Source: Planctomycetota bacterium
Lineage (GTDB): Bacteria; Planctomycetota; Phycisphaerae; WQYP01
DNA: 64,000 nucleotides
Direction of reading: 5' to 3'
Assembly (NCBI GenBank): GCA_021831565.1
Contig: JAKBMM010000002.1
Coordinates: forward strand, 39,440 to 103,439
The notes beneath the pieces are model-generated. The model was given only the letters and a program-made list of their open reading frames with translations, searched no databases and had not been told where the DNA came from. Shown piece by piece: positions 9,516 to 29,617 of the stretch; within the stretch, counting starts at the first letter, position 1, and each line of letters opens with the position of its first letter. A program made the position numbers and the translations under genes.

Positions 9516-9641
9516 ATCCCCAGTGCGATTTTCCGCCCGGCCCGCCCCTTGCCGTTACGGCCCGTCCCGATAACTATTCGGAATGGCCGTTGGGCTTCGC
9601 AAAGGGACGGGCAACAGGCTCGTTAACGCAGGAGAACCTTG

Positions 9642-9722: not shown

Positions 9723-9726
9723 GAAC

Positions 9727-9742
9727 CTATCTATTGAGATAG
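9727..9742 (+). terminator. Short hairpin CTATCT-ATTG-AGATAG immediately after the small peptide gene (carries the shared motif TCTATTGAGATAGT)
   Basis: Perfect 6-bp stem with 4-nt loop, followed by TTTC AAAAA. AT-rich stem, so a weak terminator or a protein-binding site. Confidence 0.3.
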
Positions 9743-9824
9743 TTTCAAAAACCCGCTTGTTCCACCCGCGGACCGCGGATCTCGGGATAACGCCGGCACC
9801 CGCGCCGCGGGCCGCCGCAGAAGG

Positions 9825-13661: not shown

Positions 13662-13710
13662 TCGCCGGTGGAAGAAGTTAAAGAGAACGGTTTGGATACC
13701 TCATCCAGAA

Positions 13711-13742
13711 AGACTCCAAATAGAAAAGACTCCAAATAGAAA
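13711..13742. repeat. Tandem direct repeat 2 x 16 bp (AGACTCCAAATAGAAA) directly upstream of the pyrE start
   Basis: Two perfect adjacent copies at 13711..13726 and 13727..13742. Confidence 0.6.
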
Positions 13743-14276
13743 GTGAGCGGCATCATGATGGACATTCCAACGCTGGCCAGGCGAATAAAAGAAATTGCTT
13801 ATCTGGAGGGCGATTTCACGTTGCGATCGGGAAAAAAATCCCCTTACTATCTGGACAAATATCTTTTTGAAACGCAGCCGGACATCCTGGCGGCGCTGGG
13901 CGCTCATCTGGCCGGGCGGCGCTCGGGGGCGACGGTCCGCATCGGTGGCGCCGAGCTGGGCGGCGTGGCGTTGGCGGCCGCCGCCAGCCTGGCCAGCGGT
14001 CTGCCTTTCTTTATCGTGCGCAACGCCCGGAAAGGCCACGGCACGAACAGGGTCATCGAAGGGACTATGGCGGCGGGAGATGCGGTGCTGCTGGTGGAGG
14101 ACATCGCCACCACCGGCGGGGCGGTGCTGGCGGCGGCGAAGATCATTACCGCCGCCGGCGGGCGGGTGGAGAAGGTTGTGGCGGTGATCGACCGGCAGGA
14201 AGGGGCCAGGGAAAATATCGAAAAAGAGGGGTTTATATTTGAATCGATTTTGACCCGTCAGGACCTGGGTATTTAG
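13743..14276 (+). CDS. pyrE: Orotate phosphoribosyltransferase
   Basis: The PRPP-binding motif VLLVEDIATTGGAV is present and the length is typical. GTG at 13743 or ATG at 13755/13758. Confidence 0.85.
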   Translation: MSGIMMDIPTLARRIKEIAYLEGDFTLRSGKKSPYYLDKYLFETQPDILAALGAHLAGRRSGATVRIGGAELGGVALAAAASLASGLPFFIVRNARKGHGTNRVIEGTMAAGDAVLLVEDIATTGGAVLAAAKIITAAGGRVEKVVAVIDRQEGARENIEKEGFIFESILTRQDLGI

Positions 14277-14282
14277 AGCTTG

Positions 14283-14296
14283 TCTATTGAGATAGT
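14283..14296 (+). repeat. Second copy of the motif TCTATTGAGATAGT, 7 nt after the pyrE stop
   Basis: Identical 14-mer to 9730..9743, followed by a T-rich tract (TTAAGTTTTTTCG). Confidence 0.5.
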
Positions 14297-14333
14297 CTCT
14301 TAAGTTTTTTCGACCGTTCCGGCGCGAGACGTA

Positions 14334-15668
14334 ATGATGGATCAGAAAAACCACCGCCGGCATCGCGTCCGAAAATGGATCACGACGACGCTCAAGATTC
14401 TTATTGCGGTCGTGGGGTTATGGTACGTCATATCGCGCATTTCCTGGAGCGATCGCGTAATTATCCCCAGAGGAATGGTGATCCGGAACGTCACTTTTGT
14501 CCATCCCGCCGTGGTGGAACTTCTGGGCTGGCGGGGCAAACTGGCGCGGGTGCGGTTTAAGAACCAAACGATCACCGTGCGCCTGCCTTCCGGCCGGGTG
14601 GTTCGCGGCTTGGCGACTCGCGCTCCGCTTGATTTTCCGTCGGTGCTTCTGTTGCCGCGTAATTACCTGGCGCATTCCAGCGGCAAGCTGGAAATAAAAT
14701 TCGGTTTGGAGCACCTTCTCACCACGGCCAACCCGTGGCCGCTGGTTGCGGCGCTGCTGCTGCTGGGACTGCCCTTTCTGATTACGACATGGCGCTGGCG
14801 GAAACTCCTGGCGGTGCAGGGGCTGAACCTATCCTATGGAAAATGCCTGACGCTGACTTTCGTGGGGCAGTTCTACTCAACCTTTTTGCCCGGGACCACC
14901 AGCGGCGACGTGGTGAAAATCATCTACACGGGGCGGATCACCGGTCAGAAGACCAAAAGCGCTATTACCGTTCTGCTGGACCGTGTGATCGGGCTGGTGG
15001 GGTTGATGATCGTCGGCGGCTTGGCGGCGGGGGGGCAACTGCTCTTGGATCTGACGTATCGCCGCGCCGGAGTCGGACGGTCGGCGGATCCCCTGCTGCT
15101 GCATGTGCTGGGTCTTATTGCGCTCCTGCTGCTGGCGCTGGGGGCGGGGGCGATGGTCTATTTTTCCACCCGCCTGCGGCGGTGGCTGGGGATGGACGCC
15201 CTGCTCGCCCGGCTGCCGTTGCCGGAATTCATCAAACATGCCGACCGCACGCTGCGCGCTTACCGCGGTCATAAAGGCGTGCTGGCCGCGACGCTGCTGG
15301 CGAGCATGGTTTCCCAGGCCCTTCTGCCACTGGCCGGATGGCTGGCGGGACAGGCCTTCGGGATGCGCGCCCCCTTCGGATTTTACATGGCTTATATACC
15401 GGTGGCGGTGCTGGCGTCGAGTCTGCCGATTGTCCCGCCGCAGGGTCTCGGAGTGCTCGACGCGCTGATCTTGCACTTCTTCGTGATACGGGGCGTGGAC
15501 ACCGCCAGCCAGGCGTTCGCTCTGGCCCAGGCCATCCGTTTCATGCCGATTTTCTGGAACATGCTCGGAGCGTACTGGGTGGTCCACGATCACTACTCAC
15601 GACCCCATCTGGAAAGCCTCCAAGAATTGGCGCCGGAGAATGGCGCGGCCGCACCGGCGGGAATGTGA
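14334..15668 (+). CDS. Integral membrane protein, flippase-like / lysyl-phosphatidylglycerol-synthase TM-region family (UPF0104)
   Basis: About 8 TM helices; FVGQFYSTFLPGTTSGDVVKIIY matches the conserved UPF0104 loop. Confidence 0.5.
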   Translation: MMDQKNHRRHRVRKWITTTLKILIAVVGLWYVISRISWSDRVIIPRGMVIRNVTFVHPAVVELLGWRGKLARVRFKNQTITVRLPSGRVVRGLATRAPLDFPSVLLLPRNYLAHSSGKLEIKFGLEHLLTTANPWPLVAALLLLGLPFLITTWRWRKLLAVQGLNLSYGKCLTLTFVGQFYSTFLPGTTSGDVVKIIYTGRITGQKTKSAITVLLDRVIGLVGLMIVGGLAAGGQLLLDLTYRRAGVGRSADPLLLHVLGLIALLLLALGAGAMVYFSTRLRRWLGMDALLARLPLPEFIKHADRTLRAYRGHKGVLAATLLASMVSQALLPLAGWLAGQAFGMRAPFGFYMAYIPVAVLASSLPIVPPQGLGVLDALILHFFVIRGVDTASQAFALAQAIRFMPIFWNMLGAYWVVHDHYSRPHLESLQELAPENGAAAPAGM

Positions 15669-15684
15669 ACGAGATTATCGCAGT

Positions 15685-15800
15685 ATGGTTTACGGTTACG
15701 GAAGGACGGCCGTGGATTTCCATCCACGGCTGCGGGGGGGGCGACCATGGAGCAGCCGCGAGGATCGCAATCCCGCGGCCGTTTTGTGCGCCGCCGCGAG
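15685..15800. repeat. Copy A of a roughly 115-bp structured repeat element (three consecutive hairpins)
   Basis: About 95% identical to the reverse complement of 57431..57547. Contains hairpins CCGTGGAT-TTCC-ATCCACGG, CGGCTGC...GCAGCCG and CCGCGAGGAT / ATCCCGCGG. Confidence 0.65.
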
Positions 15801-15820
15801 CAATCATATTTGATATGTTG

Positions 15821-15850
15821 TTGGCAAAAATCGGCATCTAACACTAAAAT
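15821..15850 (+). promoter_or_regulatory. Putative promoter TTGGCA-N18-TAAAAT for hipBA
   Basis: TTGGCA at 15821..15826, TAAAAT at 15845..15850, about 30 nt upstream of the hipB ATG. Confidence 0.3.
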
Positions 15851-15879
15851 ATGATCCTTATATTGCCGATGGAGATGGT

Positions 15880-16194
15880 ATGGACGCGGCACCGGTCCAA
15901 CTGCACAGCCCTAACGAGATTGCCCGCCAACTGGCGCAGCACGTCCGCACCGAACGTCTCCGCCGCCAATGGAAACAGGAGACGCTGGCCAGGCGTTCGG
16001 GCGTGTCGGTGGCAACCATTCGCCGGTACGAACGTACCGGCCACACGTCGCTTGTGAACCTGCTGAAGCTCTGCCACGCGTTGGGCCGGCTGGATGAGTT
16101 CGCCGGCTTGCTCCAACCGCCACCCGCCACGTCGCTGGCCCAACTCGAATCCCGTGCCACCAAGGTCCGGGGGCGCAAACGAGGTGTGCGATGA
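15880..16194 (+). CDS. hipB: HipB-like HTH (XRE-family) antitoxin
   Basis: HTH segment ETLARRSGVSVATIRRYE. Stop overlaps the hipA start (ATGA). Confidence 0.7.
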   Translation: MDAAPVQLHSPNEIARQLAQHVRTERLRRQWKQETLARRSGVSVATIRRYERTGHTSLVNLLKLCHALGRLDEFAGLLQPPPATSLAQLESRATKVRGRKRGVR

Positions 16195-17441
16195 GGCAAC
16201 TGACGGTCAAACTGCAACGCCGGCCAGGCGACGCTCTGACGGTCGGCACGCTGGCAGAGCATGATCGACACACATACTTCGAGTACGACCCCACATTTCT
16301 CAACACCGGCTTTGAGCTCTCGCCCTTCAAGCTGCCCGCCCGGCCCGGCTTGATCGAACATACCGACCGCGCGTTCGGTCCGCTGCCCGGCGTGTTCGAC
16401 GACTCCCTGCCCGACGGTTGGGGTCTGCTATTGATGGATCGTCACTTCCGCCGCCAGGGTGTCGACCCCATGACGTTGTCCCCGCTCGATCGGCTCGCCC
16501 ACCTCGGCGCCCGCACCATGGGCGCTCTGGTCTACCATCCGCCGTCCCGCCAACTGCCCGAGCGCGACGAGCAACTGATCAATCTCTACGATCTTGGCCG
16601 CAATGCCGAGGATGTGCTCGAAGGCGACGCCGCCGAGGTGCTGCCCGAACTGATGCGGGCTGGCGGGTCGCCAGGCGGCGCCCGCCCCAAGGTACTCGTG
16701 GGCGTCCAGGGCGACCGCATCATCTCGGGCGCAGAGGATCTGCCCGAGAGATTCCTTGGTGGCGGGGGCGAGCATTGGATCGTCAAGTTCGCCGCCAAGG
16801 CGGACGCTCCCGCGGCCGGTCCCGTCGAATACGCGTATAGCCTGATGGCCCGGGCCGCCGGGGCGGACATGCCGCCGACTCGCCTATTCGAGGTCAGGCG
16901 CGGCCGCAGTGTCCGGCGGTACTTTGGCGTCAAACGGTTCGACCGCGCCGCTGAAAACCGGCGCGTTCACATGCACACCTTCGCCAACCTGGTGCACGTG
17001 AACTTCCGCATCCCCGCGACCGACTACGCTGATCTGTTGAAGGTGACGCGGGCGCTGACACGCAACCATGCCGACCTGCTGCGCCTGTTTCGGCTGATGC
17101 TGTTCAACATCGCCGCCCACAACCGCGACGATCACGCCAAGAACTTCGCCTTTACGCTCGACGATCAGACCGGCGAATGGTCGCTCGCCCCCGCCTACGA
17201 CCTGACTTACTCGCCCGGCCCCGGTGGCGAGCACACCACCACCATCCTCGGCGAGGGCCGCCAGCCAACACGCGGCCATTGCTTGAAGCTGGCCGATCAG
17301 TTCGGACTCAAACCCGGCGAAACTCGTCCCATCATCGACCAGGTCAACACCGCCATCAGCCACTGGCGCCGGTTCGCCGAGCAGGCGGGCTGCGCGAAGA
17401 AGATGGTTGTCGCGATCGGCAAGGCAATCGCCGCAATCTAA
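16191..17441 (+). CDS. hipA: HipA-family serine/threonine kinase toxin
   Basis: HipA N- and C-terminal domains. GGARPK ATP-binding motif (SPGGARPKVLV) and catalytic HNRDDHAKNFAF loop. Confidence 0.85.
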   Translation: MRQLTVKLQRRPGDALTVGTLAEHDRHTYFEYDPTFLNTGFELSPFKLPARPGLIEHTDRAFGPLPGVFDDSLPDGWGLLLMDRHFRRQGVDPMTLSPLDRLAHLGARTMGALVYHPPSRQLPERDEQLINLYDLGRNAEDVLEGDAAEVLPELMRAGGSPGGARPKVLVGVQGDRIISGAEDLPERFLGGGGEHWIVKFAAKADAPAAGPVEYAYSLMARAAGADMPPTRLFEVRRGRSVRRYFGVKRFDRAAENRRVHMHTFANLVHVNFRIPATDYADLLKVTRALTRNHADLLRLFRLMLFNIAAHNRDDHAKNFAFTLDDQTGEWSLAPAYDLTYSPGPGGEHTTTILGEGRQPTRGHCLKLADQFGLKPGETRPIIDQVNTAISHWRRFAEQAGCAKKMVVAIGKAIAAI

Positions 17442-17528
17442 CCCAGCGTGAGATGGTTCGTCGTACCGTTGTGGTGAATCAACCTCTCCGCGGCTCCGTG
17501 TGAGTTCGTTGTTGTCCTCATCAGCGTT

Positions 17529-17797: not shown

Positions 17798-18787
17798 CTA
17801 CCACTTCGCCTCACGGAGTTTGGAAGCAATTTCCTTGACGTTCGATGGGTCGATATTGGTTTTGGGGATTACCTCCCGCAGGTCGTGGAAAAGGGGACCC
17901 TGGATTGCATAAGGCGAGTCCTTTCTGTACTCCGTTTGCTCGGGGACTCCACAGAAGAAGCGATGGCCAGTTGAGACCTCCCATCCAAGGTCTTTCTTGG
18001 CCGCGTTTATTATGCCGATTATTTTGCTGTCGTATTCGGTTGTTTCGCGCCCGTCGACCAGCGTCTTGGTGAGGCGATCATTGACATATTCCGCGTCATA
18101 AATTGAGTCAACTGCCCAGATGCACGGCACATTTTTTTGTGCATATATTCCTAGAAATTTGTGTTTTCTATAGCCGCGATCTTGCGCATGGAAATAGACG
18201 CCGAATTGCTGGTTAATTTTTACCGTTTCGCTGCACGGAACGATTCGGAGGAGGAATTTCGATTCATCGAACAGCCCCGTGTCACTGCAATAGTCTATAT
18301 AATCTTCCACTAACGCAAGCATCTGCGGCTCGTGTTCCTTGAACATCGACTTAATTTCGTGGCAAATATCCTCGTAGGTGATGTTGCGAAAAACGAGGCT
18401 GGGAACTTGTTTTGCGATTTTGCCCCCCTCTATGGCGGATAACTGTTGTCGTTGTCGGGTTAGCAGGAGAAGTATTTTCTGGGACTCATTTGAAAAGCTA
18501 GTTGCATGCCGGGAGAGTTGGTCTAGGTTGACACCACTGTTGACCTTCGATTCCACAAGAATCTTGAAGCTCCGTTGGATTATGGCGCCATCAGGCACCG
18601 ATTGTTTGTTGCGCGGCTGCTGGTTGACTTCGATTCCCACAACTATTTCCTCCCCGCAAAGCTTGGTTAGCAGATTCGACAGGTGCTGCGGGGAATAATC
18701 GTATATGCGAGCGAGGAGTTGGAGCGTGTTATTTGTGACAGTATTCTCTTGGCCTGAATATCGCGGAAAATAATGGATTTTAGACAC
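17798..18787 (-). CDS. Hypothetical protein (329 aa) in a low-GC islet, with an N-terminal PD-(D/E)xK-like motif (VPDGAII...ILVESKV)
   Basis: Long ATG-initiated ORF with codon usage clearly different from its surroundings. No family recognised beyond the nuclease-like PD...ESK spacing. Confidence 0.6.
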   Translation of the reverse strand: MSKIHYFPRYSGQENTVTNNTLQLLARIYDYSPQHLSNLLTKLCGEEIVVGIEVNQQPRNKQSVPDGAIIQRSFKILVESKVNSGVNLDQLSRHATSFSNESQKILLLLTRQRQQLSAIEGGKIAKQVPSLVFRNITYEDICHEIKSMFKEHEPQMLALVEDYIDYCSDTGLFDESKFLLRIVPCSETVKINQQFGVYFHAQDRGYRKHKFLGIYAQKNVPCIWAVDSIYDAEYVNDRLTKTLVDGRETTEYDSKIIGIINAAKKDLGWEVSTGHRFFCGVPEQTEYRKDSPYAIQGPLFHDLREVIPKTNIDPSNVKEIASKLREAKW

Positions 18788-19280: not shown

Positions 19281-19368
19281 CGGAGAGAGTGGGATTCGAA
19301 CCCACGGTGGGGTCATCCCCCACACACGACTTCCAATCGTGCTCCTTAAGCCGCTCGGACATCTCTCC
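19281..19368 (-). tRNA. tRNA-Ser (anticodon GGA)
   Basis: Minus-strand sequence GGAGAGATGTCCGAGCGG...GTGGGTTCGAATCCCACTCTCTCCG. Perfect 7-bp acceptor stem, T-arm GTGGG-TTCGAAT-CCCAC, long variable arm, anticodon loop TTGGAAG. No encoded CCA. Confidence 0.9.
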
Positions 19369-19398
19369 AGAATCCCGGCGATCCGGGATACCTGTAAA

Positions 19399-20262
19399 CT
19401 ACCGTTCGTCCGAAGGTACGTCAATTTTCTCCCGATTTACCCCGGCGGCGGGCGACCGGGAAGGATCGGGATTCCGCCGGCCGTCGATCCGGCCGATCAG
19501 CCGCAACAGACCGTCGAGGATGGTCAGGGGATGCGGCGGGCAGCCGGGAACGAAAAGATCAACGGGCACAATGGAATCGGCGCCATGGTGGACCTGGGGA
19601 TGATCGCGGTACGGTCCGCCGGAAATGGCGCACGCGCCGATGGCGATGACTATTTTCGGTCCGGGCACGGCATCATAGGTTTGTACAAGGGCGGATTTCA
19701 TGTTCCGGGTAACCGGGCCGGTGATCAACAGACCGTCGGCATGGCGGGGCGAGGCGACAAAATCAATTCCGAAACGTCCCAGATCCCAGCCAATGGTGGT
19801 AAGCACATTGACATCGGCCTCGCAGGCATTGCAGCCGCCGGCCGAGACCACGCGCAATTTCAGCGAGCGGCCCAGGAGTTTGCGGAGTTTATCGTCCAGG
19901 GCCGCGGCGAGCGCCGGCTCGCCGTCGGGGCCTACCAGCAAGTCCGCGCGCCGCCGAACCGCCAGGCGATAATCACGCGAATATTGAATCGCGCCCGTCG
20001 GGCAGGCTTCGGCGCAATCGACGCAGAACAGGCAGCGGCCCAGATCCAGTTCGATGCGGCCGGCGGCGATGGTGATGGCCCGCGTGGGACAGGCCTGGGC
20101 GCACAGGTCGCATGAATCGGGGCACCGGGCGGCATCGAATACGGGCCGGGCACGGAAATGCGGCGCCAGCGCCGGCGGAGCGCCGTCGGGATAGGCCATG
20201 GTCTGATGGCCCTGTTGGAATCGGGCTTTGACAATATCGAACATAAAACGTTCCTTCACCAA
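19399..20262 (-). CDS. Fused 2x[4Fe-4S] ferredoxin (NuoI/HycF-like) + NuoB/HycG-like small subunit of a complex-I / group-4-hydrogenase-like module
   Basis: N-terminal CPDSCDLCAQACP and CLFCVDCAEACP. NuoB-like part has GGCNACE (hydrogenase-type CxxC), IGACAISGGPY and PGCPP proximal-cluster ligands. Confidence 0.8.
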   Translation of the reverse strand: MVKERFMFDIVKARFQQGHQTMAYPDGAPPALAPHFRARPVFDAARCPDSCDLCAQACPTRAITIAAGRIELDLGRCLFCVDCAEACPTGAIQYSRDYRLAVRRRADLLVGPDGEPALAAALDDKLRKLLGRSLKLRVVSAGGCNACEADVNVLTTIGWDLGRFGIDFVASPRHADGLLITGPVTRNMKSALVQTYDAVPGPKIVIAIGACAISGGPYRDHPQVHHGADSIVPVDLFVPGCPPHPLTILDGLLRLIGRIDGRRNPDPSRSPAAGVNREKIDVPSDER

Positions 20263-20268
20263 TCCGAA

Positions 20269-21786
20269 TTATAGATCGTGACCGCAGTAAGAAAGACTAA
20301 AACTCTTATTGCAGAGCGGGAAATCGGAAATTTGCCCGCCGCGCATCGCCAGGGCCAGCCCCATCCAGTTATGGAACGACGGATCAACCACTTTATAACG
20401 CTCGAAGCGGCCGGCGGCGTCGGTCAACGCCAGATGGCATATTTCGCCGCGCCACCCTTCCACCAATGCTACGGCCAGATGATCGGGCGCCAAATTTCCC
20501 ACCGGGGAGCTTATGGTTCCGGGCGGGAGGGATCGAAGCTGTGTCCGGACAAAGTCCAGGGATCGCTGAATTTCCAACCAGCGGACATAAGCGCGGGCGA
20601 AGACATCGCCGCCGTCCCAGGAAGAAACGGGGATATGTATAAACCGGAATAAGCCGGAGGGATGGTCCTGCCGGGCGTCGCGGGTAAGTCCGCAGGCGCG
20701 GGCCACCGGTCCGACCATGCCCAGTTCAACGACCGCGCGGCGCGTCACCGGGCCGATGCCCTCGAAGCGGGCCATCACCGAGGACGAATTCCAGAGCAAT
20801 TCGACGGCCTGGCGGGTCTGCCGGCCGCAAATATCCAGTTTCGCCAGCAGATCGTTCACGGTACAAGTGGCCGGATCAAAACGCACGCCACCCGGTCGAA
20901 TCAGTCCGCGTCCGAACCGGCTGCCGCAAAGAGCGGCCGTCATGTTCAGGAATTCACCGCGCAGGCGTCCGCAATAAGAGGCGGTGGGAAGAAAGCCCAC
21001 GTCGCCGCTGAGCGCCCCCAGGTCTCCCACGTGATTGGCCAACCTTTCCAGTTCCAGGGCGATGCCGCGAATGCTCTGCGCCCGCGGCGACTTCTGTTTG
21101 CGGGCCAACGCTTCGAGCACCTGGCAGTAAGCGGTGGCGTGTCCGATGGTGGTGTCGCCGGCGAGCGTTTCGGCGTAATGGATGGTGCGATGATTCGGAC
21201 CGCCGAGCAGTGCTTGCTCCACTCCTCGATGCTGGTATCCCAGCGCCATCTCCAGGTGAAACACAACTTCTCCGTGGCACTGGAAGCGGAAATGTCCCGG
21301 CTCAATGACGCCCGCGTGGACCGGTCCCACGGCCACCTCGTGCACTTCCTCCCCCCGCACCTGGTAGAAATCCATCACTCCCGGCGGCGCGACGCGATCG
21401 TTCCCGGGCCGGCCCGATGGAAACAATGGCGGATGAAAACGGAGCGGTTTGAGCCAGGGATGTCCGACGATATCCAAACCACACTGTTCGGCGATTTCCC
21501 GTTCAAAGAGATGTACCTGCGGACACCGGGGCGTTAAAGAAGGGTAGTGCCGGCCCGCCAGCGTGGAAGCGACCCGGAGAATGGATTGGGTATCGTCCGC
21601 CAGAACCACATACAGGCGCAGGCGATCCGGTGCTTCGAGCGAACCAAACAGGCTTGCCACCCGCCGGCCCGTGCGTACCGCATCCAGAATGACTTGCTGG
21701 AAGTTGTCCAGGGCCAGGTCGGGAATCAAACGACGGCTGATGGCGCGTCCGGCGCCGAGCAGGGGTAAAGAGTCGGCCTGATTCAT
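20269..21786 (-). CDS. Fused NuoC-like + NuoD/[NiFe]-large-subunit-like protein lacking all Ni-Fe-ligating cysteines (Ehr-type)
   Basis: NuoC motif FEREIAEQCGLDIVGHP; NuoD-like GPVHAGVIEPGHFRF...HRGVEQ. No CxxC anywhere; the C-terminus has DPSFHNW where hydrogenases have DPCxxC. Confidence 0.8.
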   Translation of the reverse strand: MNQADSLPLLGAGRAISRRLIPDLALDNFQQVILDAVRTGRRVASLFGSLEAPDRLRLYVVLADDTQSILRVASTLAGRHYPSLTPRCPQVHLFEREIAEQCGLDIVGHPWLKPLRFHPPLFPSGRPGNDRVAPPGVMDFYQVRGEEVHEVAVGPVHAGVIEPGHFRFQCHGEVVFHLEMALGYQHRGVEQALLGGPNHRTIHYAETLAGDTTIGHATAYCQVLEALARKQKSPRAQSIRGIALELERLANHVGDLGALSGDVGFLPTASYCGRLRGEFLNMTAALCGSRFGRGLIRPGGVRFDPATCTVNDLLAKLDICGRQTRQAVELLWNSSSVMARFEGIGPVTRRAVVELGMVGPVARACGLTRDARQDHPSGLFRFIHIPVSSWDGGDVFARAYVRWLEIQRSLDFVRTQLRSLPPGTISSPVGNLAPDHLAVALVEGWRGEICHLALTDAAGRFERYKVVDPSFHNWMGLALAMRGGQISDFPLCNKSFSLSYCGHDL

Positions 21787-23216
21787 GGCTTGGCTCCCAG
21801 ATATCGGCTGGCCTGGTGCAAAAGGTCCCGCAGCGGCGGCGGCAGATACAGCCCCAGCAACAATACCATCAGCAGAGCACCCAGCGCCGGCAGACCACTC
21901 AGCAGGCCATCGCGGTAATTGTTCCGCGCGGCGGCTACGGGCGCCCGGCCCAGCACGGCGGCGAGCACGGTTCGCCCCATTCCCAGGAAAATCACCAGCA
22001 GCAGAAACAGAAACGCCGCGCCGATCAGGAAATGCCCGGCGGCAAAGGCGCCGTTAAGAATCATGAACTCACTGATAAACGGGCCGAACGGAGGCGATCC
22101 GGTGATGGCCAGAAAACCCAGCATAAACACCGTGCCCGAGAGAGGCAGCCGTCGCATGGCGCCGTGCACCTGCGGTATGGTTTTGCCGCCGTAGGCCCGG
22201 TCGATGTTGCCGACGGAAAGAAACAGCGATCCCTTGGTCAGGCCGTTGTTGATCACGTGCAGCATGGCGCCCAGCAGAGCGATACCGCCGATTCCCAGTC
22301 CCAGCGCAAGAATTCCCATGTGTTCCACACTGGAATAGGCGAGCATCCGCTTGAGGTCCTTCTGGCCGATCATAAATATCGCCGCGAAAAGCATGGATAA
22401 AAGCCCCAGAAATATCAGGAGCCTGGAGGCATAAGCGCCATCGCCGGCGGCATACAGGATGTGCTCGGATCGCACCACCATAAGAAAAGCGCTGCTGATG
22501 AGCGCTCCGGAAAACATGGCCGAAACCGGAGCCGGGCTTTCGCCATGGGCGTCCGGCAGCCAGGAGTGCATCGGGGCCAGGCCCATTTTGGTTCCATAGC
22601 CGACCAGCAGCAGGACAAATCCGGCCTGAAGCCAGACCTTGTTGAGCCGGGGCGCCTGGCGAAGCAGGTCGATGATTTTCAGGGAAGGCGTCATTCCCCG
22701 GCTCACGGCGGAGTAAGCCACGAAAAATGATCCGAGCAAGGCCAGAGCGATGCCCACGGAGCAGATCAGGAGATATTTCCAGGTGGCTTCGATGGACTGC
22801 GGCGTGCGGTTGAAATATATCAAAGGCGCGGAGCTAAGGGTGGTGGCTTCCATGGCCACCCACATCAGGCCGAGGTTGTCCGTGCAGATGACCAGGGTCA
22901 TGGCGCCCAGAAACAGCAGGAAGCACGAGCAGAAGACGCGATTGGCATGATCGGCGCGGGAGCACAGGTATCCCGCCAAATAAAAAGAACACAGCAGGAA
23001 CAACACGCTCACCAGAAGCAGCACCACGCGCCCGGGCGGATCGATCTCCAGCCAGCCCCCGCGCGCGCCGCCGCCATATCCGGCCAGAATGGCCAGGACC
23101 AGGCCCAGGTGGGCGATCGCCACGGGCGGCAGGAGCCAGGGCCGCCGGCGGTTGGAGGGCAGCAGCGCCGCCAGGGCGGCGGCGAGAGGACATAGAATAA
23201 TAAGTGCAATGTACAT
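21783..23216 (-). CDS. NuoN/NuoM/MrpD-like antiporter-type membrane subunit (HyfF-like)
   Basis: 477 aa, 14 TM. Conserved WLPDAHGESPAPVSA and LAYSSVEHMG motifs. Start overlaps the previous gene by 4 nt. Confidence 0.8.
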   Translation of the reverse strand: MYIALIILCPLAAALAALLPSNRRRPWLLPPVAIAHLGLVLAILAGYGGGARGGWLEIDPPGRVVLLLVSVLFLLCSFYLAGYLCSRADHANRVFCSCFLLFLGAMTLVICTDNLGLMWVAMEATTLSSAPLIYFNRTPQSIEATWKYLLICSVGIALALLGSFFVAYSAVSRGMTPSLKIIDLLRQAPRLNKVWLQAGFVLLLVGYGTKMGLAPMHSWLPDAHGESPAPVSAMFSGALISSAFLMVVRSEHILYAAGDGAYASRLLIFLGLLSMLFAAIFMIGQKDLKRMLAYSSVEHMGILALGLGIGGIALLGAMLHVINNGLTKGSLFLSVGNIDRAYGGKTIPQVHGAMRRLPLSGTVFMLGFLAITGSPPFGPFISEFMILNGAFAAGHFLIGAAFLFLLLVIFLGMGRTVLAAVLGRAPVAAARNNYRDGLLSGLPALGALLMVLLLGLYLPPPLRDLLHQASRYLGAKP

Positions 23217-23223: not shown

Positions 23224-23865
23224 TTATCCCTTCAAGGAAGAAAGCCGCCGGGTGTCCAGCGAAGCGAACTCGCGATTGATGTGATGCATGATGATGCTGA
23301 TGACAAAAATGCCGACAAACAGGTCCAGCAGTACGCCCAGCTCCACCAGGGACGGGATCGCGCCGAGCAGAAGCAGACCGAAAACGAAAATGCCGTTTTC
23401 CAGCAGCAGAAAACCGATGGTTTGCGTAAGGGCCTTCACCCGCGTGGTCAAAAGCAGAAAGCCGGTGAAAAGCATGGAGATGGAAGTGGGAATCACCAAC
23501 AGACCCAGAGGGCTTGCGGAAGGCGTGATCCGTCCGGCCAGCACCAGGGCGGCGCCGGTGGCGGCGGCGCCCAGAAGAATGCAGGGCATGAATCCGATGA
23601 TCGGTTCCACCTCCCGTTTGACGTGGGCGTCGCGCAGGGCCTTGAGCAGCATATTGGGAATCACGACGCCTTTGAGCACAACCGTCATCAAGGCCATGAA
23701 CAGCGGTACGAATTGCGCCTCCCGGAGCACCAGGGGAGGCAGCAATCCCAGCAAGATGCCCTGGAGCGCCGCGGCGTGTATCAAAGCCTTCATGCGGCCG
23801 GCGCCCAGGACAAACAGGTTGATCAGAATCACCAGTACAAAAATGGCGTTGAGGGTCATCATCAT
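23224..23865 (-). CDS. HyfE-like small membrane subunit of the complex
   Basis: 213 aa, about 6 TM; size and hydropathy are those of hydrogenase-4 component E. 7-nt gap to the neighbouring genes. Confidence 0.6.
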   Translation of the reverse strand: MMMTLNAIFVLVILINLFVLGAGRMKALIHAAALQGILLGLLPPLVLREAQFVPLFMALMTVVLKGVVIPNMLLKALRDAHVKREVEPIIGFMPCILLGAAATGAALVLAGRITPSASPLGLLVIPTSISMLFTGFLLLTTRVKALTQTIGFLLLENGIFVFGLLLLGAIPSLVELGVLLDLFVGIFVISIIMHHINREFASLDTRRLSSLKG

Positions 23866-23871: not shown

Positions 23872-24810
23872 TCACCGCAGCAGCAAAAGAAATCCAAAAC
23901 CGTTCAAAAGACAGGCGGCAACCAGAAGCGTCGGCACCAGTCGAAGCTGCAGCCGGGCCATGATGGATTCCACCACGCCAATCACACCCGCCACCGCCAG
24001 CAGGCCGGGTATGGTCATCGCCCAGTTTTCCCAGATCCATCCCTGATTCAGCGGGAGCAGCACATGGAGCAGCAGGGCGCCGAGGACCAGAAGTTTGACG
24101 GCTGATCCGTAAATCTGCGCCGCCAGCAGGGGGCCGCTGTTGTCCAGCACCAGCACCTCATGTATCATTGTCAATTCGAGATGTGTATTTGGATCATCAA
24201 TGGGCAGACGGGAGGTCTCCGCCAGGAGCACCACGAACAATCCGAACGCCGTGAGCACCAGCGCCGCCGCGGCCGTGGAATCAATAGCGACATGTGTCGC
24301 GGGCGCCAGCATGGTGCTCAGGCTCAAGGTTCCGGAGAGTTTCACCAGCACCAGCAGCGCCAGAAACAACGCCGGTTCCGAAAAGGAGGCGAAGGTGAGT
24401 TCCCGGGCGGCCCCCATCCCCTCAAACGATGAGCCGGTATCCAGCGCCGCCAGAATGGTGAAAAATCTCCCCAGCGCCAGCAGGTAAGCAAACAGGATCA
24501 GATCGCCGGTGAAATGCACGGGAGCCGCGGTCGGTCCCAGCGGAACAAGCAACCCCGCCAGCAAGACGCTGGCCAGGGAAATCAGCGGCGCGGCCGAAAA
24601 CACCCAGGTTGTGGTGGAACTCAGCACGACGCCTTTGCGCATGAGCCGAAGCAGATCGTAGTAAGTCTGGAAAAGCGGCGGGCCGACGCGCCCGGCGAAC
24701 CAGGCCTTGGTTTTGTTGATAACGCCCGGCAGCAATGGCGGCAGAAGCACCAGCAGCAGGATCTGAAAAGCAATCGAAATAAGCGTATTCATAAAGTCAA
24801 TAGCTCGCAA
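23872..24810 (-). CDS. NuoH/HycD/HyfC-like membrane subunit
   Basis: 312 aa with 8 TM. Conserved IDDPNTHLELTMIHEVLVLDNSGP-type loop (the E/D-rich quinone-channel loop region). Confidence 0.75.
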   Translation of the reverse strand: MRAIDFMNTLISIAFQILLLVLLPPLLPGVINKTKAWFAGRVGPPLFQTYYDLLRLMRKGVVLSSTTTWVFSAAPLISLASVLLAGLLVPLGPTAAPVHFTGDLILFAYLLALGRFFTILAALDTGSSFEGMGAARELTFASFSEPALFLALLVLVKLSGTLSLSTMLAPATHVAIDSTAAAALVLTAFGLFVVLLAETSRLPIDDPNTHLELTMIHEVLVLDNSGPLLAAQIYGSAVKLLVLGALLLHVLLPLNQGWIWENWAMTIPGLLAVAGVIGVVESIMARLQLRLVPTLLVAACLLNGFGFLLLLR

Positions 24811-24828: not shown

Positions 24829-26796
24829 TCAAACCAGCAACAGCACCAGAACAATCAGCAAGACGTAAAGCAGATACAACTGCACCGTACCGCTCTGAAA
24901 AATCCTGGCGGATTTAAGGGTATTCCCGGCCTTGTGCAACGCCGGTTGCACAACGCTCTCCAGCAGCGGGTCCGGGGTATGAGAGGCATAGTTCGATGGT
25001 TGGGGAAAAACGCCCTGAATCCGCGGTTGTCGCCGGGTGGACCACACAAGCCAGCGCAGCATTTCTGTGAGCGCTTGCGTGAGCGATGAGCCGGTGTACT
25101 GCATGCGCTGGTTGGGAGAGACGTAACCACAACCCCATGTCCGGCCGGGGTTACGGATCCGGGCGTGCCGCCAGGGTATGGCCAGCACCCCGATCAGTCC
25201 GCCCGCGAAGAACAGGGCCAGGGCCACAGCGGTAAAACAGCCCAGGGGAATAATGGTTTCCAGGGGGATGGGCGCGTTCCAAGGCGTCCAGGCTCGAATC
25301 GCATGATCCAGAAGTCCTGTGAACAACTGCGGAAAAATGCCGACGATCGCACAGCCGGCGGCCAGCAGCAGCATGGGCGCCAGCATCATGGACCCCGGCT
25401 CATGGGCGTTGGCGGCCGCCGCGGTTCGCGGTTGGCCGGCGAATGATGTCGCCGTGAACTTGATAAACGTCGTCATGGCCAAAGCCCCGACCATGGCCAA
25501 CAGGGGAACGGCCAGTGCGGCCCAGCCGGCGGGTGTTCCCCCCTGGAGCGTTTTGAATAATCCCAGGTAAATGAACAGTTCGCTGACAAAGCCATTCCAT
25601 GGCGGCAGAGCCGAGATGGAGGCCGCTCCAACCAGCATCAGCCAGAAAAGCGTCGGCATTCGTCGGGCCAGGCCGCCCAAAGCCTCCAGATCGCGGGCGC
25701 CCGTGCCGTGTATGATTCCGCCGGCGCCCATGAACAGGAGCGGTTTGAACAGGCTATGATTGAACATGTGAAGCAGCGATCCCCCCAGTCCCAGCGCCAC
25801 CCAAAGCGGGTGTTGCAGGGATAGTCCCAACACGGCCAGCCCCAGACCCGTCATGAGAATGCCGATATTTTCAATGCTGCTGTAGGCCAGAAGCCGCTTG
25901 CAGTCCCTCTGCGCACAGGCCCATACAATTCCCAGGAAAGCCGAGAGCATTCCACAACTGAGCAGCACCGCTCCCCACCAGATCGGTGGATGACCCGCGA
26001 TGGCGGCCACCCGCACGATGCCGTAAACGCCCATGTTCAGCAGCACACCGGAAAACAGCGCCGATACGTGGCTAGGGGCATTGGCGTGCGCCCCCGGCAG
26101 CCAGACATGCAGCGGGACCAGACCGGCCTTGCAGCCAAATCCCACCAGCCCCAGAATAAACAGAGCCGCCAGCATCGCTCTCGGCAGGTGCGTCAGGCCG
26201 GTCGGCCAGAGATTTAGCGAACCGGACCCGACTCGGAGCAATACGAAAAAGGCGATCAGACAGAGTGTGGCAATATGGGTGGCGATGAGGTAGACCCATC
26301 CCGCCTGTTGCACTTGCGGCCGACGGTCCTCGGTTATCAGAAGAAAGTAGCCCGCCATCGCCATGATTTCCCAGGCGATGAGGAATTCCACGCTGTTGGC
26401 GGCGAGAACCACCAGGATCATTCCGGCGGTCGTGATTCCCCAGAATAAACGGAGTTTGCGTCCATCCGCGGGATGCCGCCGCTGCGGCCAATAGCCCAGG
26501 CCATAGACGGACCCCAGGGCGGAAATCAGAAAAATGGGAAGTAAAAACCAGGCGCTTAAGTCATCCAGTTGCAAGGCGGGCTTGCCGATCGGAAAGCGGT
26601 ATGTCGTGGCCCAATGCAACGGAGCGGCCGCCGCTAGATCATGGCGCAACAGTACCGCGATGCCGAGGGCGCTGGCCAGCACATGGATGGCCATCGATAG
26701 TACCGGCCCGCGCGCGCTGCGCCGGCCGGACACCAGCGAAGGCAAGCCGCTTCCAGCGATCAATAGAGCGGCGAGAATCAGAAGAAACATGGTCAT
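24829..26796 (-). CDS. NuoL/MrpA/HyfB-like antiporter-type subunit, paralog 1
   Basis: Start taken at MTMFLLI (ATG 26796; GGAG RBS 9 nt upstream). Conserved HVWLPGAHANAPSHVSALFSG and KRLLAYSSIENIG motifs. Confidence 0.8.
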   Translation of the reverse strand: MTMFLLILAALLIAGSGLPSLVSGRRSARGPVLSMAIHVLASALGIAVLLRHDLAAAAPLHWATTYRFPIGKPALQLDDLSAWFLLPIFLISALGSVYGLGYWPQRRHPADGRKLRLFWGITTAGMILVVLAANSVEFLIAWEIMAMAGYFLLITEDRRPQVQQAGWVYLIATHIATLCLIAFFVLLRVGSGSLNLWPTGLTHLPRAMLAALFILGLVGFGCKAGLVPLHVWLPGAHANAPSHVSALFSGVLLNMGVYGIVRVAAIAGHPPIWWGAVLLSCGMLSAFLGIVWACAQRDCKRLLAYSSIENIGILMTGLGLAVLGLSLQHPLWVALGLGGSLLHMFNHSLFKPLLFMGAGGIIHGTGARDLEALGGLARRMPTLFWLMLVGAASISALPPWNGFVSELFIYLGLFKTLQGGTPAGWAALAVPLLAMVGALAMTTFIKFTATSFAGQPRTAAAANAHEPGSMMLAPMLLLAAGCAIVGIFPQLFTGLLDHAIRAWTPWNAPIPLETIIPLGCFTAVALALFFAGGLIGVLAIPWRHARIRNPGRTWGCGYVSPNQRMQYTGSSLTQALTEMLRWLVWSTRRQPRIQGVFPQPSNYASHTPDPLLESVVQPALHKAGNTLKSARIFQSGTVQLYLLYVLLIVLVLLLV

Positions 26797-26840
26797 CAAC
26801 AACGACTCCAGACGACTCCATCCCGGCACGCCGGGATCGG

Positions 26841-28823
26841 TTAAAACAGGATCTTCCAGAGCGCTCCCAACGGGAGCGTAATCAGAAGCAGAAAAAGTAA
26901 CATCAAAAGCATATAAAAAAGATAGCTCTGAACGTTGCCCCGCTGGAACACGCGGCCATTGGCCAGCACGGATCGCAAACGCCGCCACCCGGGTTCCAGA
27001 ACGTTTTTCAGGACCGGATCATCCACATGCGAATGGAATTGACCGGGACCGGCAAAGAGGCCCGATAGCCGCGGTTCGCGACGGCGCATGCGCAGCAGCG
27101 GCCGCAATGTACCCAGCAGCATTTGTGCCAGGGAGGAGGCGGTGTACTGCATACGGCTGGAAGACCCGGCGTAACCGCAATTCCACGTCGGTTGGGTCCG
27201 CGCCTGGCGCGCCAGGAACCGCCGGAGAAGGAAAGCGACCAGGAGGACCGCGGCCAGAGACAGATTCATTATGGTCAAGGCGGTTAGCGGAGTCAGCGCA
27301 ACCAGCGCCGGCAGTCCCCGGTGGGCCCAGGCGCTGGTGGTTCGGTTCAACGGCGTTGCCACCAGCGTGGGCGCCATTCCGATCAACAGACATCCGCCGG
27401 CGAGAATCATCATCGGCAGCCAAAACGCCGGGCCGGCTTCGCGCACCCGGCGCAGCTTGGTGCGGGCTGTTCCAAGAAAGACCGCGCCGCAGACCTTGGT
27501 GAAGCACGCCGCCGCCAGCGCCCCGACCATGGCCAGCACTCCGGCAGCCAGAGCCAGTATCGGCAGCACGGTCATTGTTCGCAGAAGCCCCACGTAAATG
27601 AAAAGTTCACTGACAAATCCATTCAGCGGCGGCAGGCCGCAGATGGCGATGGCTCCGAGCAAAAACAGGTTGGAAGTAAGCGGCATGGATTGGGCCAGCC
27701 CGCCGAGCCGATCGATTTTCCGCGTTCCGGCGGCATGGATGACACTGCCCGCGGAAAGGAACAAAAGCGACTTGAACAATCCGTGATTCCAGACGTGCAG
27801 AAGACATCCGGCCATTCCCAGGATGATCCATATCGGCTGATGTTTTGCCTCGCCGATCAGCGCCAGTCCCAGTCCCAACAGGATGATTCCGATGTTTTCC
27901 ACACTGTGATACGCCAGGAGTTTTTTCAGATCGTGCTGACCGATCGCCCATAACACACCGAGAAATGCGCTAAGTGCGCCGAGCGTCATAACCAGAATGC
28001 CCCAGCCGAGCGGTCTGGCCGGAAGCAGCGGCAACACGCGCAGCAGCCCGAAAATGCCCATCTTAATTGTGGTTCCCGATAACGTTGCGGATACATGACT
28101 CGGAGCGTTCGCGTGGGCTTCGGGCAGCCAGAAATGCAGCGGCACCATGCCGGCCTTAACGCCGAAGGCCCCCAGGGCCAGTAGAAATAACGCCGTCTGC
28201 AATCCCATACCGGCCTGTTCCGGCGAAAGCGGACGCAGAAGAAATGATCCCGACGCCATACGCAGCAAGGCAAAAAAGGCGAACAGCAGCAAGGTGCTTA
28301 TGTGTGCCGCCGCCAGATAAACCCAGGCGGCCTGGCGGGAGTCGGGCTTGAAGTCTTCCGTGGCTATAAGGAAAAACGTGCTGATCGCCATGAGTTCCCA
28401 CGCAAACAGAAAGCAAATGCCGTTGTTGCTCAACGTAATCATCGCCATGCTGGAAATGAGTATTCCGTACCAGAATCGCAGTTTCCGGCCGGTCCGGGGA
28501 TGATGACTTTGTTTCCAGTAACCGATGCCATAGAGCGAACATAGGCCGCCGATAAGAAAAATGGGGACCAGAAAAAATGCCGCCAGCGGATCAAGCCGGA
28601 GGTTGGTGGTCATGACCGGCGCCGGTCCGGGACCGGCCAGAGATTCAACCGGGGCGCCAAGCAGTATGGCCATAGCGGCCGTGAGGCCGCACAGCGCGGC
28701 CAGGACGGCCACCAACACCGAAAGCCAATGTCCCCAATTGCGGCGGCGATTGCCCACCATACCTATCAGGCCGCTGGCGGCAAAGCCGCCCGCGCCCAGC
28801 AATGTCATGGTCAGCCACATCAC
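26841..28823 (-). CDS. NuoL/MrpA/HyfB-like antiporter-type subunit, paralog 2
   Basis: 660 aa. HFWLPEAHANAPSHVSATLSG and KKLLAYHSVENIG. First gene of the structural part of the operon. Confidence 0.8.
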   Translation of the reverse strand: MMWLTMTLLGAGGFAASGLIGMVGNRRRNWGHWLSVLVAVLAALCGLTAAMAILLGAPVESLAGPGPAPVMTTNLRLDPLAAFFLVPIFLIGGLCSLYGIGYWKQSHHPRTGRKLRFWYGILISSMAMITLSNNGICFLFAWELMAISTFFLIATEDFKPDSRQAAWVYLAAAHISTLLLFAFFALLRMASGSFLLRPLSPEQAGMGLQTALFLLALGAFGVKAGMVPLHFWLPEAHANAPSHVSATLSGTTIKMGIFGLLRVLPLLPARPLGWGILVMTLGALSAFLGVLWAIGQHDLKKLLAYHSVENIGIILLGLGLALIGEAKHQPIWIILGMAGCLLHVWNHGLFKSLLFLSAGSVIHAAGTRKIDRLGGLAQSMPLTSNLFLLGAIAICGLPPLNGFVSELFIYVGLLRTMTVLPILALAAGVLAMVGALAAACFTKVCGAVFLGTARTKLRRVREAGPAFWLPMMILAGGCLLIGMAPTLVATPLNRTTSAWAHRGLPALVALTPLTALTIMNLSLAAVLLVAFLLRRFLARQARTQPTWNCGYAGSSSRMQYTASSLAQMLLGTLRPLLRMRRREPRLSGLFAGPGQFHSHVDDPVLKNVLEPGWRRLRSVLANGRVFQRGNVQSYLFYMLLMLLFLLLITLPLGALWKILF

Positions 28824-29548
28824 TCGCCTTGCCCCGGTGAGTTGCCATGGGCCGCCGCAGGACCTTGCCCTGTCGTCAAAATACCGGACTCCGCCCGTCG
28901 CAGGGATTCCAGAACCTCTTCCCGGGCGGCCTGCTCCAGCACGACCTTCTTGAATCCCGGATCACGCAGGACAAAACCCAGCCGCGAAAGCAATTGCAGA
29001 TGCGCCCGCACAGTGGGACTGATAAGCGTAAAGAGAGTACTTACCGGCTGCCCGTCGAGTGCCCCAAAGTCCACGGGCTTTTCCAGGAAACACAGCACGA
29101 TCATGGGACCGGACAGGTGCAACACGATGGGATTGCGGACATGCGGAATCGCGATTCCTTCTCCAATGCCGGTCGAGCCGAGAGCTTCCCGGGCCAGCAA
29201 CACCTGATAGAGAAATTCGCGGTCCACTTCCTCCGGCAGCCGCATGATTTCCACCACGCTGCGCAGCACGGAACTTTTATCGACGCCGCTGATCCGGTAG
29301 TAGATGCCGCCATCGCGCAGCGCATCGGTTAGCGATGGCGCCGGCGTTTCACCTCCCTCCGGTTCAAGGAAGATTTCCGGGGAAACATGAATTTTTCGTG
29401 AGGTGGACCACTCAAGCAGCTCAGCCCGGTTGAATCGGTATTGCTCGTTAACCTGGTAGGCGGGAATGATCCCCTGCTTAATCCAGCGGTACACGCTTTT
29501 TTCCGATACATTAAGTAGTCGAGCGGCATCGCGGACGGTGAGTTTCAT
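28820..29548 (-). CDS. HTH (excisionase/MerR-like HTH_17) + PTS EIIA(Ntr/Fru type-2) two-domain protein, translationally coupled to the complex operon
   Basis: MKLTVRDAARLLNVSEKSVYRWIKQG HTH; EIIA-2 domain with phosphorylatable His in GEGIAIPHVRNP. Its stop overlaps the next start (ATGA). ATG 29548 with AAGGG RBS. Confidence 0.75.
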   Translation of the reverse strand: MKLTVRDAARLLNVSEKSVYRWIKQGIIPAYQVNEQYRFNRAELLEWSTSRKIHVSPEIFLEPEGGETPAPSLTDALRDGGIYYRISGVDKSSVLRSVVEIMRLPEEVDREFLYQVLLAREALGSTGIGEGIAIPHVRNPIVLHLSGPMIVLCFLEKPVDFGALDGQPVSTLFTLISPTVRAHLQLLSRLGFVLRDPGFKKVVLEQAAREEVLESLRRAESGILTTGQGPAAAHGNSPGQGE

Positions 29549-29588
29549 ATCATGCCCTTCATACAACCATTGTGTCGCATTATTACCC

Positions 29589-29617
29589 ACTATAAAACAA
29601 ATGTCCTAAAAAGTCAA
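29589..29617 (-). promoter_or_regulatory. Near-consensus sigma70 promoter TTGACT-N17-TATAGT driving the HTH-EIIA/complex operon
   Basis: On the minus strand: TTGACT (plus coordinates 29612..29617), 17-nt spacer, TATAGT (29589..29594), about 40 nt upstream of ATG 29548. Confidence 0.5.

Follow-up and report, generated by a model that had tools for sequence, protein, structure and literature searches.

A 64,000-nucleotide stretch of the genome of a Planctomycetota bacterium (assembly GCA_021831565.1, contig JAKBMM010000002.1, forward-strand positions 39,440 to 103,439; this whole stretch is called the window here) contains a minus-strand gene that seems to encode two electron-transfer modules in one polypeptide, a ferredoxin-like domain with motifs for two [4Fe-4S] clusters and a NuoB/HycG-like domain with the ligands of a third one. 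The locus raises the question whether this fusion is real, whether it is peculiar to this genome, and what such a protein might do next to a large subunit that is related to those of [NiFe]-hydrogenases. The gene is the last one of a tight seven-gene minus-strand operon of the order ehrA1-A2-B-C-D-L-S. Its product, EhrS, is very probably the electron-transfer small subunit of an Ehr (Ech-hydrogenase-related or energy-converting hydrogenase-related) membrane complex, and its two domains form a genuine and evolutionarily fixed fusion; the mechanistic part of this reading is what we infer. The name Ehr was reportedly given by Coppi in 2005, and the class is said to have been discussed by Marreiros et al. 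in 2013. Ehr complexes have been described as a class akin to the group 4 hydrogenases that does not have the Ni-Fe ligands and whose function is unassigned (PMC6349859, PMC10284858, PMC4758237).

One reading frame with ligands for three clusters

Searches against three collections agree on the composition of EhrS. Pfam places Fer4 dicluster families at amino acids (aa) 34-99 and Oxidored_q6 at aa 138-248 (E 9e-27). From NCBIfam, the models of the formate hydrogenlyase iron-sulfur subunit (PRK12387, 1e-23) and of hydrogenase-4 subunit H match aa 1-103, and the NuoB model (PRK06411) matches aa 137-255 with 120.5 bits at a cut-off of 116. Among the structures in the PDB, MbhJ is matched by aa 119-251 (6cfw_J, 1.7e-33), residues 24-166 of HycG by aa 114-256 (7z0s_G, 1.4e-32), and residues 1-107 of HycF by aa 1-103 (7z0s_F; 8.7e-17 using the N-terminal domain alone). 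As far as sequence comparison can tell, these matches are far beyond chance. From about aa 112-119 onwards, the segment connecting the two domains aligns with the N-terminal segment that precedes the CxxC motif in HycG, MbhJ, and HyqI. The domain search proposed in an earlier note on this DNA, which was made from the sequence alone, therefore bears out its view that a HycF/NuoI-like 2x[4Fe-4S] domain and a HycG/NuoB-like domain reside in one polypeptide. Its statement that these modules are separate elsewhere also holds, because they are distinct chains in every solved relative, namely formate hydrogenlyase (FHL, 7z0s), the membrane-bound hydrogenase MBH (6cfw), MBS (6u8y), and complex I.

The ligands of the first ferredoxin motif are C41/C45/C48/C52, with the spacing C-x3-C-x2-C-x3-CP, and those of the second are C71/C74/C77/C81 (CxxCxxCxxxCP). 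In the NuoB-like domain the ligands are C138/C141 (GGCNAC), C205 (GACAISGG), and C235 (PGCPPHP). All twelve cysteines are invariant in an alignment of 18 homologous sequences. The motifs thus give the N-terminal domain a putative 2x[4Fe-4S] character of the HycF/HyfH/NuoI type, the first of them with a variant spacing, and a NuoI-type fold is predicted. An AlphaFold2 model of EhrS built from the 18-sequence alignment has a predicted local distance difference test score (pLDDT) of 46. In the first motif, 'CPDSCDLCAQACP' (aa 41-51; 20092-20124, minus strand), a C-x3-C spacing replaces that of the usual CxxCxxCxxxCP; this spacing is invariant in the family and is also found in a 46%-identical homologue on a Variovorax plasmid. 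The GGCNAC motif aligns with 'gsCngC' of MbhJ and 'ggCngC' of HycG, whereas the PSST subunit of complex I has 'aCCa'/'laCCave' at this position. The tandem Cys-Cys of the complex I cluster N2 is not present in EhrS, and the earlier description of the proximal motif as a hydrogenase-type CxxC instead of a complex I CC pair is therefore correct.

The maximal frame (19399..20262, minus strand) would start with a TTG at 20262 and encode 287 aa, and it is open throughout without an internal stop. The ATG at 20244 is likely the better start, leading to a product of 281 aa, because the sequence GAAGGAA is found 6 nucleotides (nt) upstream and because the NCBI gene call has the same start. Public gene calls for the identical product give 281 aa at NCBI and 287 aa at JGI. 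The earlier note had considered that a missed stop or a frameshift might separate the domains; both were looked for and none was found in the continuous frame, and hundreds of homologues are single open reading frames (ORFs) as well. The neighbouring large-subunit protein is present at 100% identity on at least 24 contigs, and in all three assemblies shown (the metagenome-assembled genomes GCA_027343245.1 and GCA_027429175.1 from NCBI and the JGI metagenome 3300039716) a fused small-subunit ORF of 281 or 287 aa with Fer4 and Oxidored_q6 is located beside the identical large-subunit gene. One could suspect an error of assembly or sequencing behind the single ORF, or two neighbouring genes fused into a pseudogene. 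The only reason to raise this is that hyc, hyf, ech, and nuo encode the modules separately, and no evidence supporting it was found. Its probability is practically nil, given the uninterrupted frame with a conserved linker of 33 aa, the one fused ORF in three independent assemblies, and the same architecture in hundreds of species; the frame, the assemblies, and the homologues already refute it. An antisense ORF (19339..20115, plus strand) overlaps the small-subunit gene. It is read as a by-product of the G+C-rich sequence because the minus-strand frame has strong homology.

How widely the fusion and its operon are conserved

The fused architecture is found far beyond the window. In a search of 5.8 billion proteins, all of the 120 best matches (of 8000) have both Fer4 and Oxidored_q6, with lengths of 253-332 aa and identities of 67-94%. 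Among 1.84 billion representatives at 50% identity, 333 clusters score below 1e-30, the full-length fused members among them reaching down to 36% identity, and the Variovorax plasmid encodes a fused version of 249 aa (46% identity). A scan of one genome per species revealed at least 595 genomes encoding an EhrS relative. The 80 best relatives span Planctomycetota, Verrucomicrobiota, Kiritimatiellae, Lentisphaerae, Acidobacteriota (including the isolate Geothrix paludis), Geobacteraceae/Desulfuromonadales, Myxococcota, Spirochaetes, Latescibacterota, Binatia, and others. A homologue (P0201) is also encoded by a cultured planctomycete, Fontivita pretiosa. The proteins of the window were mapped onto the 80 best related loci (L001-L080). 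At 72 of 73 loci the fused gene is immediately preceded by the EhrL gene, and the order B-C-D-L is kept in 53 of 56. The conservation of the fusion in orthologous operons, which the earlier note had suggested to check, is thus evident from both the matches and the loci. The rarity that it had implied is not, because a large family, already named and annotated, has this fusion as its usual architecture; public pipelines label homologues as 'Ni,Fe-hydrogenase III small subunit/ferredoxin'. Judged by these sequences, the fusion is the normal, conserved small-subunit architecture of the widespread Ehr family, and the locus in the window is an ordinary further member. The fusion by itself therefore matters little, being the rule in hundreds of bacterial species.

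The operon closest to that of the window is the one at locus L009, with 64-82% identity. EhrS proteins are 59-71% identical across Planctomycetota, Acidobacteriota, Desulfuromonadota, Spirochaetota, and Verrucomicrobiota, which is unusually high. This suggests strong constraint, horizontal spread of the whole operon, or both. Copies are also found on plasmids and megaplasmids of Variovorax, Rhizobium, Cupriavidus, and Burkholderia. Plasmid 3 of Variovorax sp. PBL-E5 (L085) carries a fused-type Ehr operon at 2971-10255 and, 3.4 kb downstream on the same strand, a second operon with hyfB/nuoH/hyfE/hyfF-like genes at 13667-17494, so that two related complexes are encoded side by side on one replicon. 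Some loci are organised differently. At L026 the membrane-subunit genes are divergent from regulator-ehrL-ehrS; within 10 kb, L007 has only ehrL-ehrS and L037 only ehrS. At L024, weaker NuoB/NuoD/NuoH-like matches (29-41% identity) on the other strand possibly belong to a separate conventional nuo cluster.

Table 1. The EhrS gene, its domains, and the other genes of the operon (positions in the window)
Feature	Position	Strand	Remarks
ehrS-type gene, 2x[4Fe-4S] ferredoxin-like + NuoB/HycG-like small subunit	19399..20244	-	281 aa; stop codon 19399-19401
C-terminal tail, aa 256-281	19402..19479	-	unconserved, length-variable after aa ~255 in the alignment
NuoB/HycG/MbhJ-like domain, aa 137-255	19480..19836	-	proximal [4Fe-4S] ligands C138, C141, C205, C235
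Connecting segment, aa 104-136	19837..19935	-	low-confidence helix prediction
N-terminal HycF/HyfH/NuoI-like domain, aa 1-103, two [4Fe-4S] motifs	19936..20244	-	collinear with HycF residues 1-107 of 180
Ribosome-binding site GAAGGAA	20251..20257	-	6 nt upstream of ATG 20244; read from sequence
ehrL-type large subunit, 505 aa, NuoC-NuoD fusion	20269..21786	-	without [NiFe] cysteines and without C-terminal processing extension
ehrD-type HyfF/NuoN-like antiporter-like subunit	21783..23216	-	'fvfwE', 'tKsaq', 'tfKgslf' motifs of MrpA/NuoL kept
ehrC-type HyfE-like membrane subunit	23224..23865	-	PRK11492, 3.7e-19
ehrB-type NuoH/HyfC-like membrane subunit	23872..24810	-	Pfam/NCBIfam
ehrA-2-type HyfB/NuoL-like subunit	24829..26988	-	maximal ORF overlaps ehrA-1 by ~150 nt
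ehrA-1-type HyfB/NuoL-like subunit	26841..28823	-	Pfam/NCBIfam
Regulator, HTH_17 + PTS_EIIA_2 (PtsN-like)	28820..29590	-	4-nt overlap of its stop with the ehrA-1 start; co-transcribed

The true start of ehrA-2 is probably internal, near 26790-26800. The related loci contain either one EhrA copy (30 loci) or two (17 loci), and therefore the membrane arm is not equally long in all members of the family. EhrD has kept the residues that correspond, in the alignment, to the conserved Glu and Lys motifs of MrpA/NuoL, and we take them to be the Glu of transmembrane helix (TM) 5 and the Lys of TM7 and TM12 of antiporter-like subunits. The same motifs are carried, as judged by eye, by both EhrA copies. 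The best match of EhrD in the PDB is MbsH of the MBS complex. The regulator, which combines a helix-turn-helix (HTH) domain with an EIIA domain, precedes the operon at 40 of 51 related loci, across several phyla. Its motif 'GIAIPHVRNP' is conserved, and the His therein is presumably the phosphorylatable EIIA histidine. This regulator suggests that the operon is controlled by the phosphorelay of the nitrogen phosphotransferase system. Clustering of 648 flanking ORFs from the 80 loci did not yield any other recurrent partner gene, and neither formate dehydrogenase (FDH) nor NuoEFG nor hyp genes are conserved within 10 kb of the operon in these loci. In the window, genes for a HipB-like HTH protein and for the kinase toxin HipA (HipA_C, 1.5e-50) are located just downstream of the operon (15880-17441, plus strand). 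They are accompanied by an ORF of 329 aa (17798-18787, minus strand) that is not matched by Pfam and for which PADLOC gives just a marginal hit (PDC-S26, 1e-3). Neither the HipBA genes nor this ORF recur in the related loci, and they look like local insertions.

The large subunit and the possible electron path

The best match of EhrL in the PDB is HycE (1.5e-46). In the region of the [NiFe] ligands EhrL has 'AETLAGDTTIGH' where HycE has 'SDRVCGICGFAH'. Across 73 orthologues, of which one is the window protein and the other 72 were extracted at full length from the related loci, the positions of the four ligands are occupied by Ala or Ser (Cys in one case), by Thr, Ala, or Ser, by Ser, and by Gly, respectively; the set of four cysteines is kept in none of those 72. 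All 73 proteins end with ...SYCGHDL at about the point where HycE is cleaved during maturation, and therefore no extension is left to be processed. The earlier note had regarded the partner large subunit as non-hydrogenase, and the replaced ligands, in comparison with HycE and across all orthologues, support this.

Outside the [NiFe] positions, EhrL contains six cysteines that are highly conserved. C170 is present in 73 of 73 sequences, C272, C287, and C501 in 72 each, C492 in 69, and C450 in 68. In addition, E162, D262, and R446 are invariant, and H216 and H451 are found in 72 sequences each. The cysteines fall into segments that line or flank the active site of hydrogenases and complex I: beside the EPGHFR loop, following the equivalent of D139 of Nqo4 and the arginine of (P/W)RG, and within the former C-terminal CxxC. 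The six-cysteine set, together with a C-terminal signature shared with HyqG, may mark a new active site. An AlphaFold2 model of EhrL built from 25 sequences reached a pLDDT of 67.7, with values below 50 for residues 127-184 and 471-505, which include C170, C492, and C501.

Based on these data we propose that the three [4Fe-4S] clusters of EhrS would form a single wire, which would be the whole electron path of the complex. Through its distal, ferredoxin-like domain, EhrS would exchange electrons with a low-potential carrier in solution, which is most likely ferredoxin. Ferredoxin is the likely donor because the operon is not accompanied by a donor module of its own; only the PtsN-like regulator travels with it, which points to ubiquitous substrates. 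Ferredoxin is also docked by the corresponding subunits of Ech, MBH, and MBS. The proximal cluster would then pass the electrons to a pocket at the interface of EhrS, EhrL, and EhrB, which would no longer hold Ni-Fe. The reaction could be coupled to the movement of H+ or Na+ through EhrA and EhrD, or it could be reversed and driven by the ion gradient. The fusion as such may secure a 1:1 stoichiometry and may tether a HycF-like domain that lacks the C-terminal 70 residues. Concerning the second substrate, we tentatively suggest a membrane quinone, with ferredoxin:quinone oxidoreduction or its reverse as the overall reaction. This suggestion, which we consider possible and not yet probable, is made because the hosts respire, because there are no partner genes, and because the NuoH-like subunit and the equivalent of Asp139 of Nqo4 are conserved.

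Several points weigh against the assignment of EhrS to a working Ehr complex of this kind. The PDB search gave no Ehr complex, the best matches being MBH, FHL, and complex I, and both the donor and the acceptor of Ehr are ones that we infer. The AlphaFold models are too poor for describing the geometry of the clusters or of the EhrL cysteines. The orthology to the G. sulfurreducens small subunit GSU0745 was judged via homologues from uncultured Geobacteraceae, which are 61-64% identical and encoded in the same operon, and not from GSU0745 itself; a protein search seeded with the EhrS of an uncultured Geobacter sp. gave no entry under the name of G. sulfurreducens. In an alignment to 2fug_4, the equivalents of Tyr87 and His38 of T. 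thermophilus Nqo4 are Gly210 and Ile161 in all 73 EhrL sequences; thus, the canonical quinone site of complex I is absent from EhrL, which weakens the suggestion of a quinone. One paper moreover regards Ehr as non-functional in Geobacter (PMC13194489). The view of a non-functional relic is, however, contradicted by the invariance of the EhrS ligands across phyla and by the conservation of the non-[NiFe] cysteines of EhrL.

The EhrL cysteines could indicate a different acceptor. EhrS might deliver electrons from ferredoxin to a disulfide, persulfide, or polysulfide at these cysteines, as in MBS/MBX, or to a new metal or cluster site. Six conserved cysteines apart from the [NiFe] positions in segments lining the active site of relatives would agree with this, and so would the closeness of EhrD to MbsH of the sulfane-reducing MBS and the missing quinone ligands. 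Nevertheless such an acceptor seems unlikely. The low pLDDT in the cysteine regions means that the model of EhrL lends no spatial support, genes of sulfur metabolism are not linked to the operon in the 80 loci, the hosts are ecologically very diverse, and only C272 and C492 are common to the sister group Hyq. Some of the Ehr host lineages are aerobes. A more general form of the idea, which is doubtful but would include both groups, is that the large subunits of Ehr and Hyq have replaced the Ni-Fe centre with a new conserved site built from cysteines one to a few residues off the old ligands and beside the proximal cluster, so that EhrS would be the ferredoxin-facing input wire of a very widespread ion-translocating oxidoreductase with new chemistry at a thiol/persulfide or a new metal site. 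If this were true, the cysteines of the new site would comprise C272 and C492 as common to Ehr and Hyq, C501 as conserved in Ehr, and C170, C287, and C450 as specific to the Ehr type, and the fused ferredoxin domain would separate ferredoxin-coupled versions (Ehr) from differently coupled ones (Hyq).

The study of Hyq has led to the proposal of a genuine enzyme of H2 metabolism whose active site is not [NiFe], and EhrS would by analogy link ferredoxin to such a site. Hyq shares the gene order and the NuoC::D subunit without CxxC motifs with Ehr, its deletion in Azorhizobium caulinodans raises H2 evolution of N2-fixing cultures 10-15-fold (PMC2650096, PMC3357923), EhrL and HyqG have in common a C-terminal signature as well as C272 and C492, and HyqI is 52% identical to aa 112-254 of EhrS. 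The authors inferred an H2:quinone 'endo-hydrogenase' but called its catalytic site 'speculative' (PMC3357923). Their evidence is genetic only, and the phenotype could be an indirect one via the electron flux to nitrogenase. With all four [NiFe] ligands missing in 73 of 73 EhrL proteins, no maturation extension, and no conserved hyp genes near the operon, H2 metabolism by Ehr is quite improbable. In addition, Hyb has been reported to be the only uptake hydrogenase that G. sulfurreducens requires for growth on H2 (PMC7894505). Even less can be said for a variant respiratory complex I (NDH-1), in which EhrS would be a NuoB with fused NuoI in a conventional quinone reductase. NCBIfam does assign the C-terminal domain to the NuoB subfamily above the cut-off, NCBI names homologues 'NADH-quinone oxidoreductase subunit NuoB', and the operon encodes NuoH-like and antiporter-like subunits. 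But the proximal ligands are of the CxxC type and not the tandem CC of N2, the best matches are MbhJ and HycG and not NuoB, the Tyr87 and His38 positions of NuoD are Gly and Ile, and the operon has no NuoA/J/K/E/F/G but a HyfE-like subunit, all of which makes a complex I subunit very improbable. An electron-transfer small subunit of Ehr thus remains the preferred reading of the gene.

Ehr in comparison with related complexes

The Ehr cluster of G. sulfurreducens (GSU0739-0745) encodes EhrA-1, A-2, B, C, D, L, and S (PMC7894505). It is expressed and regulated by the electron donor, its abundance being higher on formate and during syntrophic co-culture (PMC7894505, PMC8691401). The operon of the window has the same composition, with two NuoL/HyfB-like subunits, one NuoH-like, one HyfE-like, and one HyfF-like subunit, a large subunit without [NiFe] ligands, and the small subunit. 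The same operon is found at the loci from Geobacteraceae/Desulfuromonadales, whose fused small subunits comprise 251-253 aa and are 61-64% identical to EhrS. The difference lies in the host, which appears to be an uncultured planctomycete instead of Geobacter. A dedicated formate dehydrogenase/NuoEF-like donor, as it has been proposed for some Ehr complexes (PMC6349859), was considered and dropped for this subtype, given that no flanking genes recur in the 80 loci.

FHL of E. coli (HycF + HycG) and MBH of P. furiosus (MbhN + MbhJ) contain both modules with identical cluster ligands, and their proximal CxxC aligns residue for residue. However, in both complexes the modules are separate chains, HycF has 70 more C-terminal residues than the N-terminal domain of EhrS, and the large subunits bind Ni-Fe while EhrL has the four ligands replaced and no maturation extension. 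Compared with group 4 [NiFe]-hydrogenases in general, EhrS has the CxxC...C...CP ligands of the NuoB-type small subunits, but the partner with two CxxC [NiFe] motifs and the extension of the large subunit are not found, and no hyp-like gene is conserved within 10 kb at the 80 loci. A bona fide [NiFe]-hydrogenase was therefore rejected, the four ligands being lost in EhrL. MBS and MBX of the Thermococcales are derived from hydrogenases but do not make H2, and they have a three-cluster wire that is fed by ferredoxin. MbsJ and MbsN of MBS both match EhrS. They are, however, separate subunits and more distant (2.8e-21 and 8.5e-11), and although MbsH is the best match of EhrD the set of membrane subunits is different. 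EhrS is predicted to adopt the folds of the complex I subunits NuoB (cluster N2) and NuoI (N6a/N6b), with its clusters ordered as they are in the last part of the wire of complex I. These subunits differ from EhrS by the tandem CC ligands and by being separate subunits, and the Tyr and His of the quinone site are present in complex I but not in EhrL.

The family as such is of broader relevance because Ehr and Hyq have been cited in discussions of how complex I evolved from membrane-bound hydrogenases (PMC4758237). Their chemistry is a worthwhile problem, with Ehr being expressed in Geobacter and the Hyq deletion shifting the H2 balance of Azorhizobium during N2 fixation. What is added here is that the twelve cluster ligands of EhrS and the non-[NiFe] cysteines of EhrL are strongly constrained across phyla, which argues against a dead relic, and that the fused ferredoxin domain separates Ehr from Hyq.

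The latter comparison is the closest one. The hyqRBCEFGI genes of A. caulinodans and other N2-fixing alphaproteobacteria have the same order and include a 504-aa NuoC::D large subunit without both CxxC motifs; HyqI is NuoB-only, with cluster cysteines at 55/58/112/152, and the Hyq complex does not have a NuoI counterpart (PMC3357923). Like Ehr, Hyq thus comprises a regulator, HyfB-, NuoH-, HyfE-, and HyfF-like genes, a NuoC::D protein of about 504 aa, and a NuoB-like small subunit with CxxC...C...C. The regulators are unrelated though, that of Hyq being an HTH protein of 129 aa and that of Ehr an HTH+EIIA protein. EhrL is 36% identical to HyqG of Rhizobium leguminosarum and shares the C-terminal DFPLCNKSF..SY.GHDL, C272, and C492 with it, whereas C170, C287, C450, and C501 are not conserved in HyqG, which has a Cys three residues before the position of C501. 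The plasmid-encoded HyqI of R. leguminosarum comprises 177 aa, is matched by aa 112-254 of EhrS, and contains nothing matching aa 1-111. Accordingly, the first NuoB-type cysteine is at position 138 in EhrS but at position 55 in HyqI. By all appearances of these alignments, it is the fused ferredoxin domain that distinguishes the Ehr type from its sister type Hyq.

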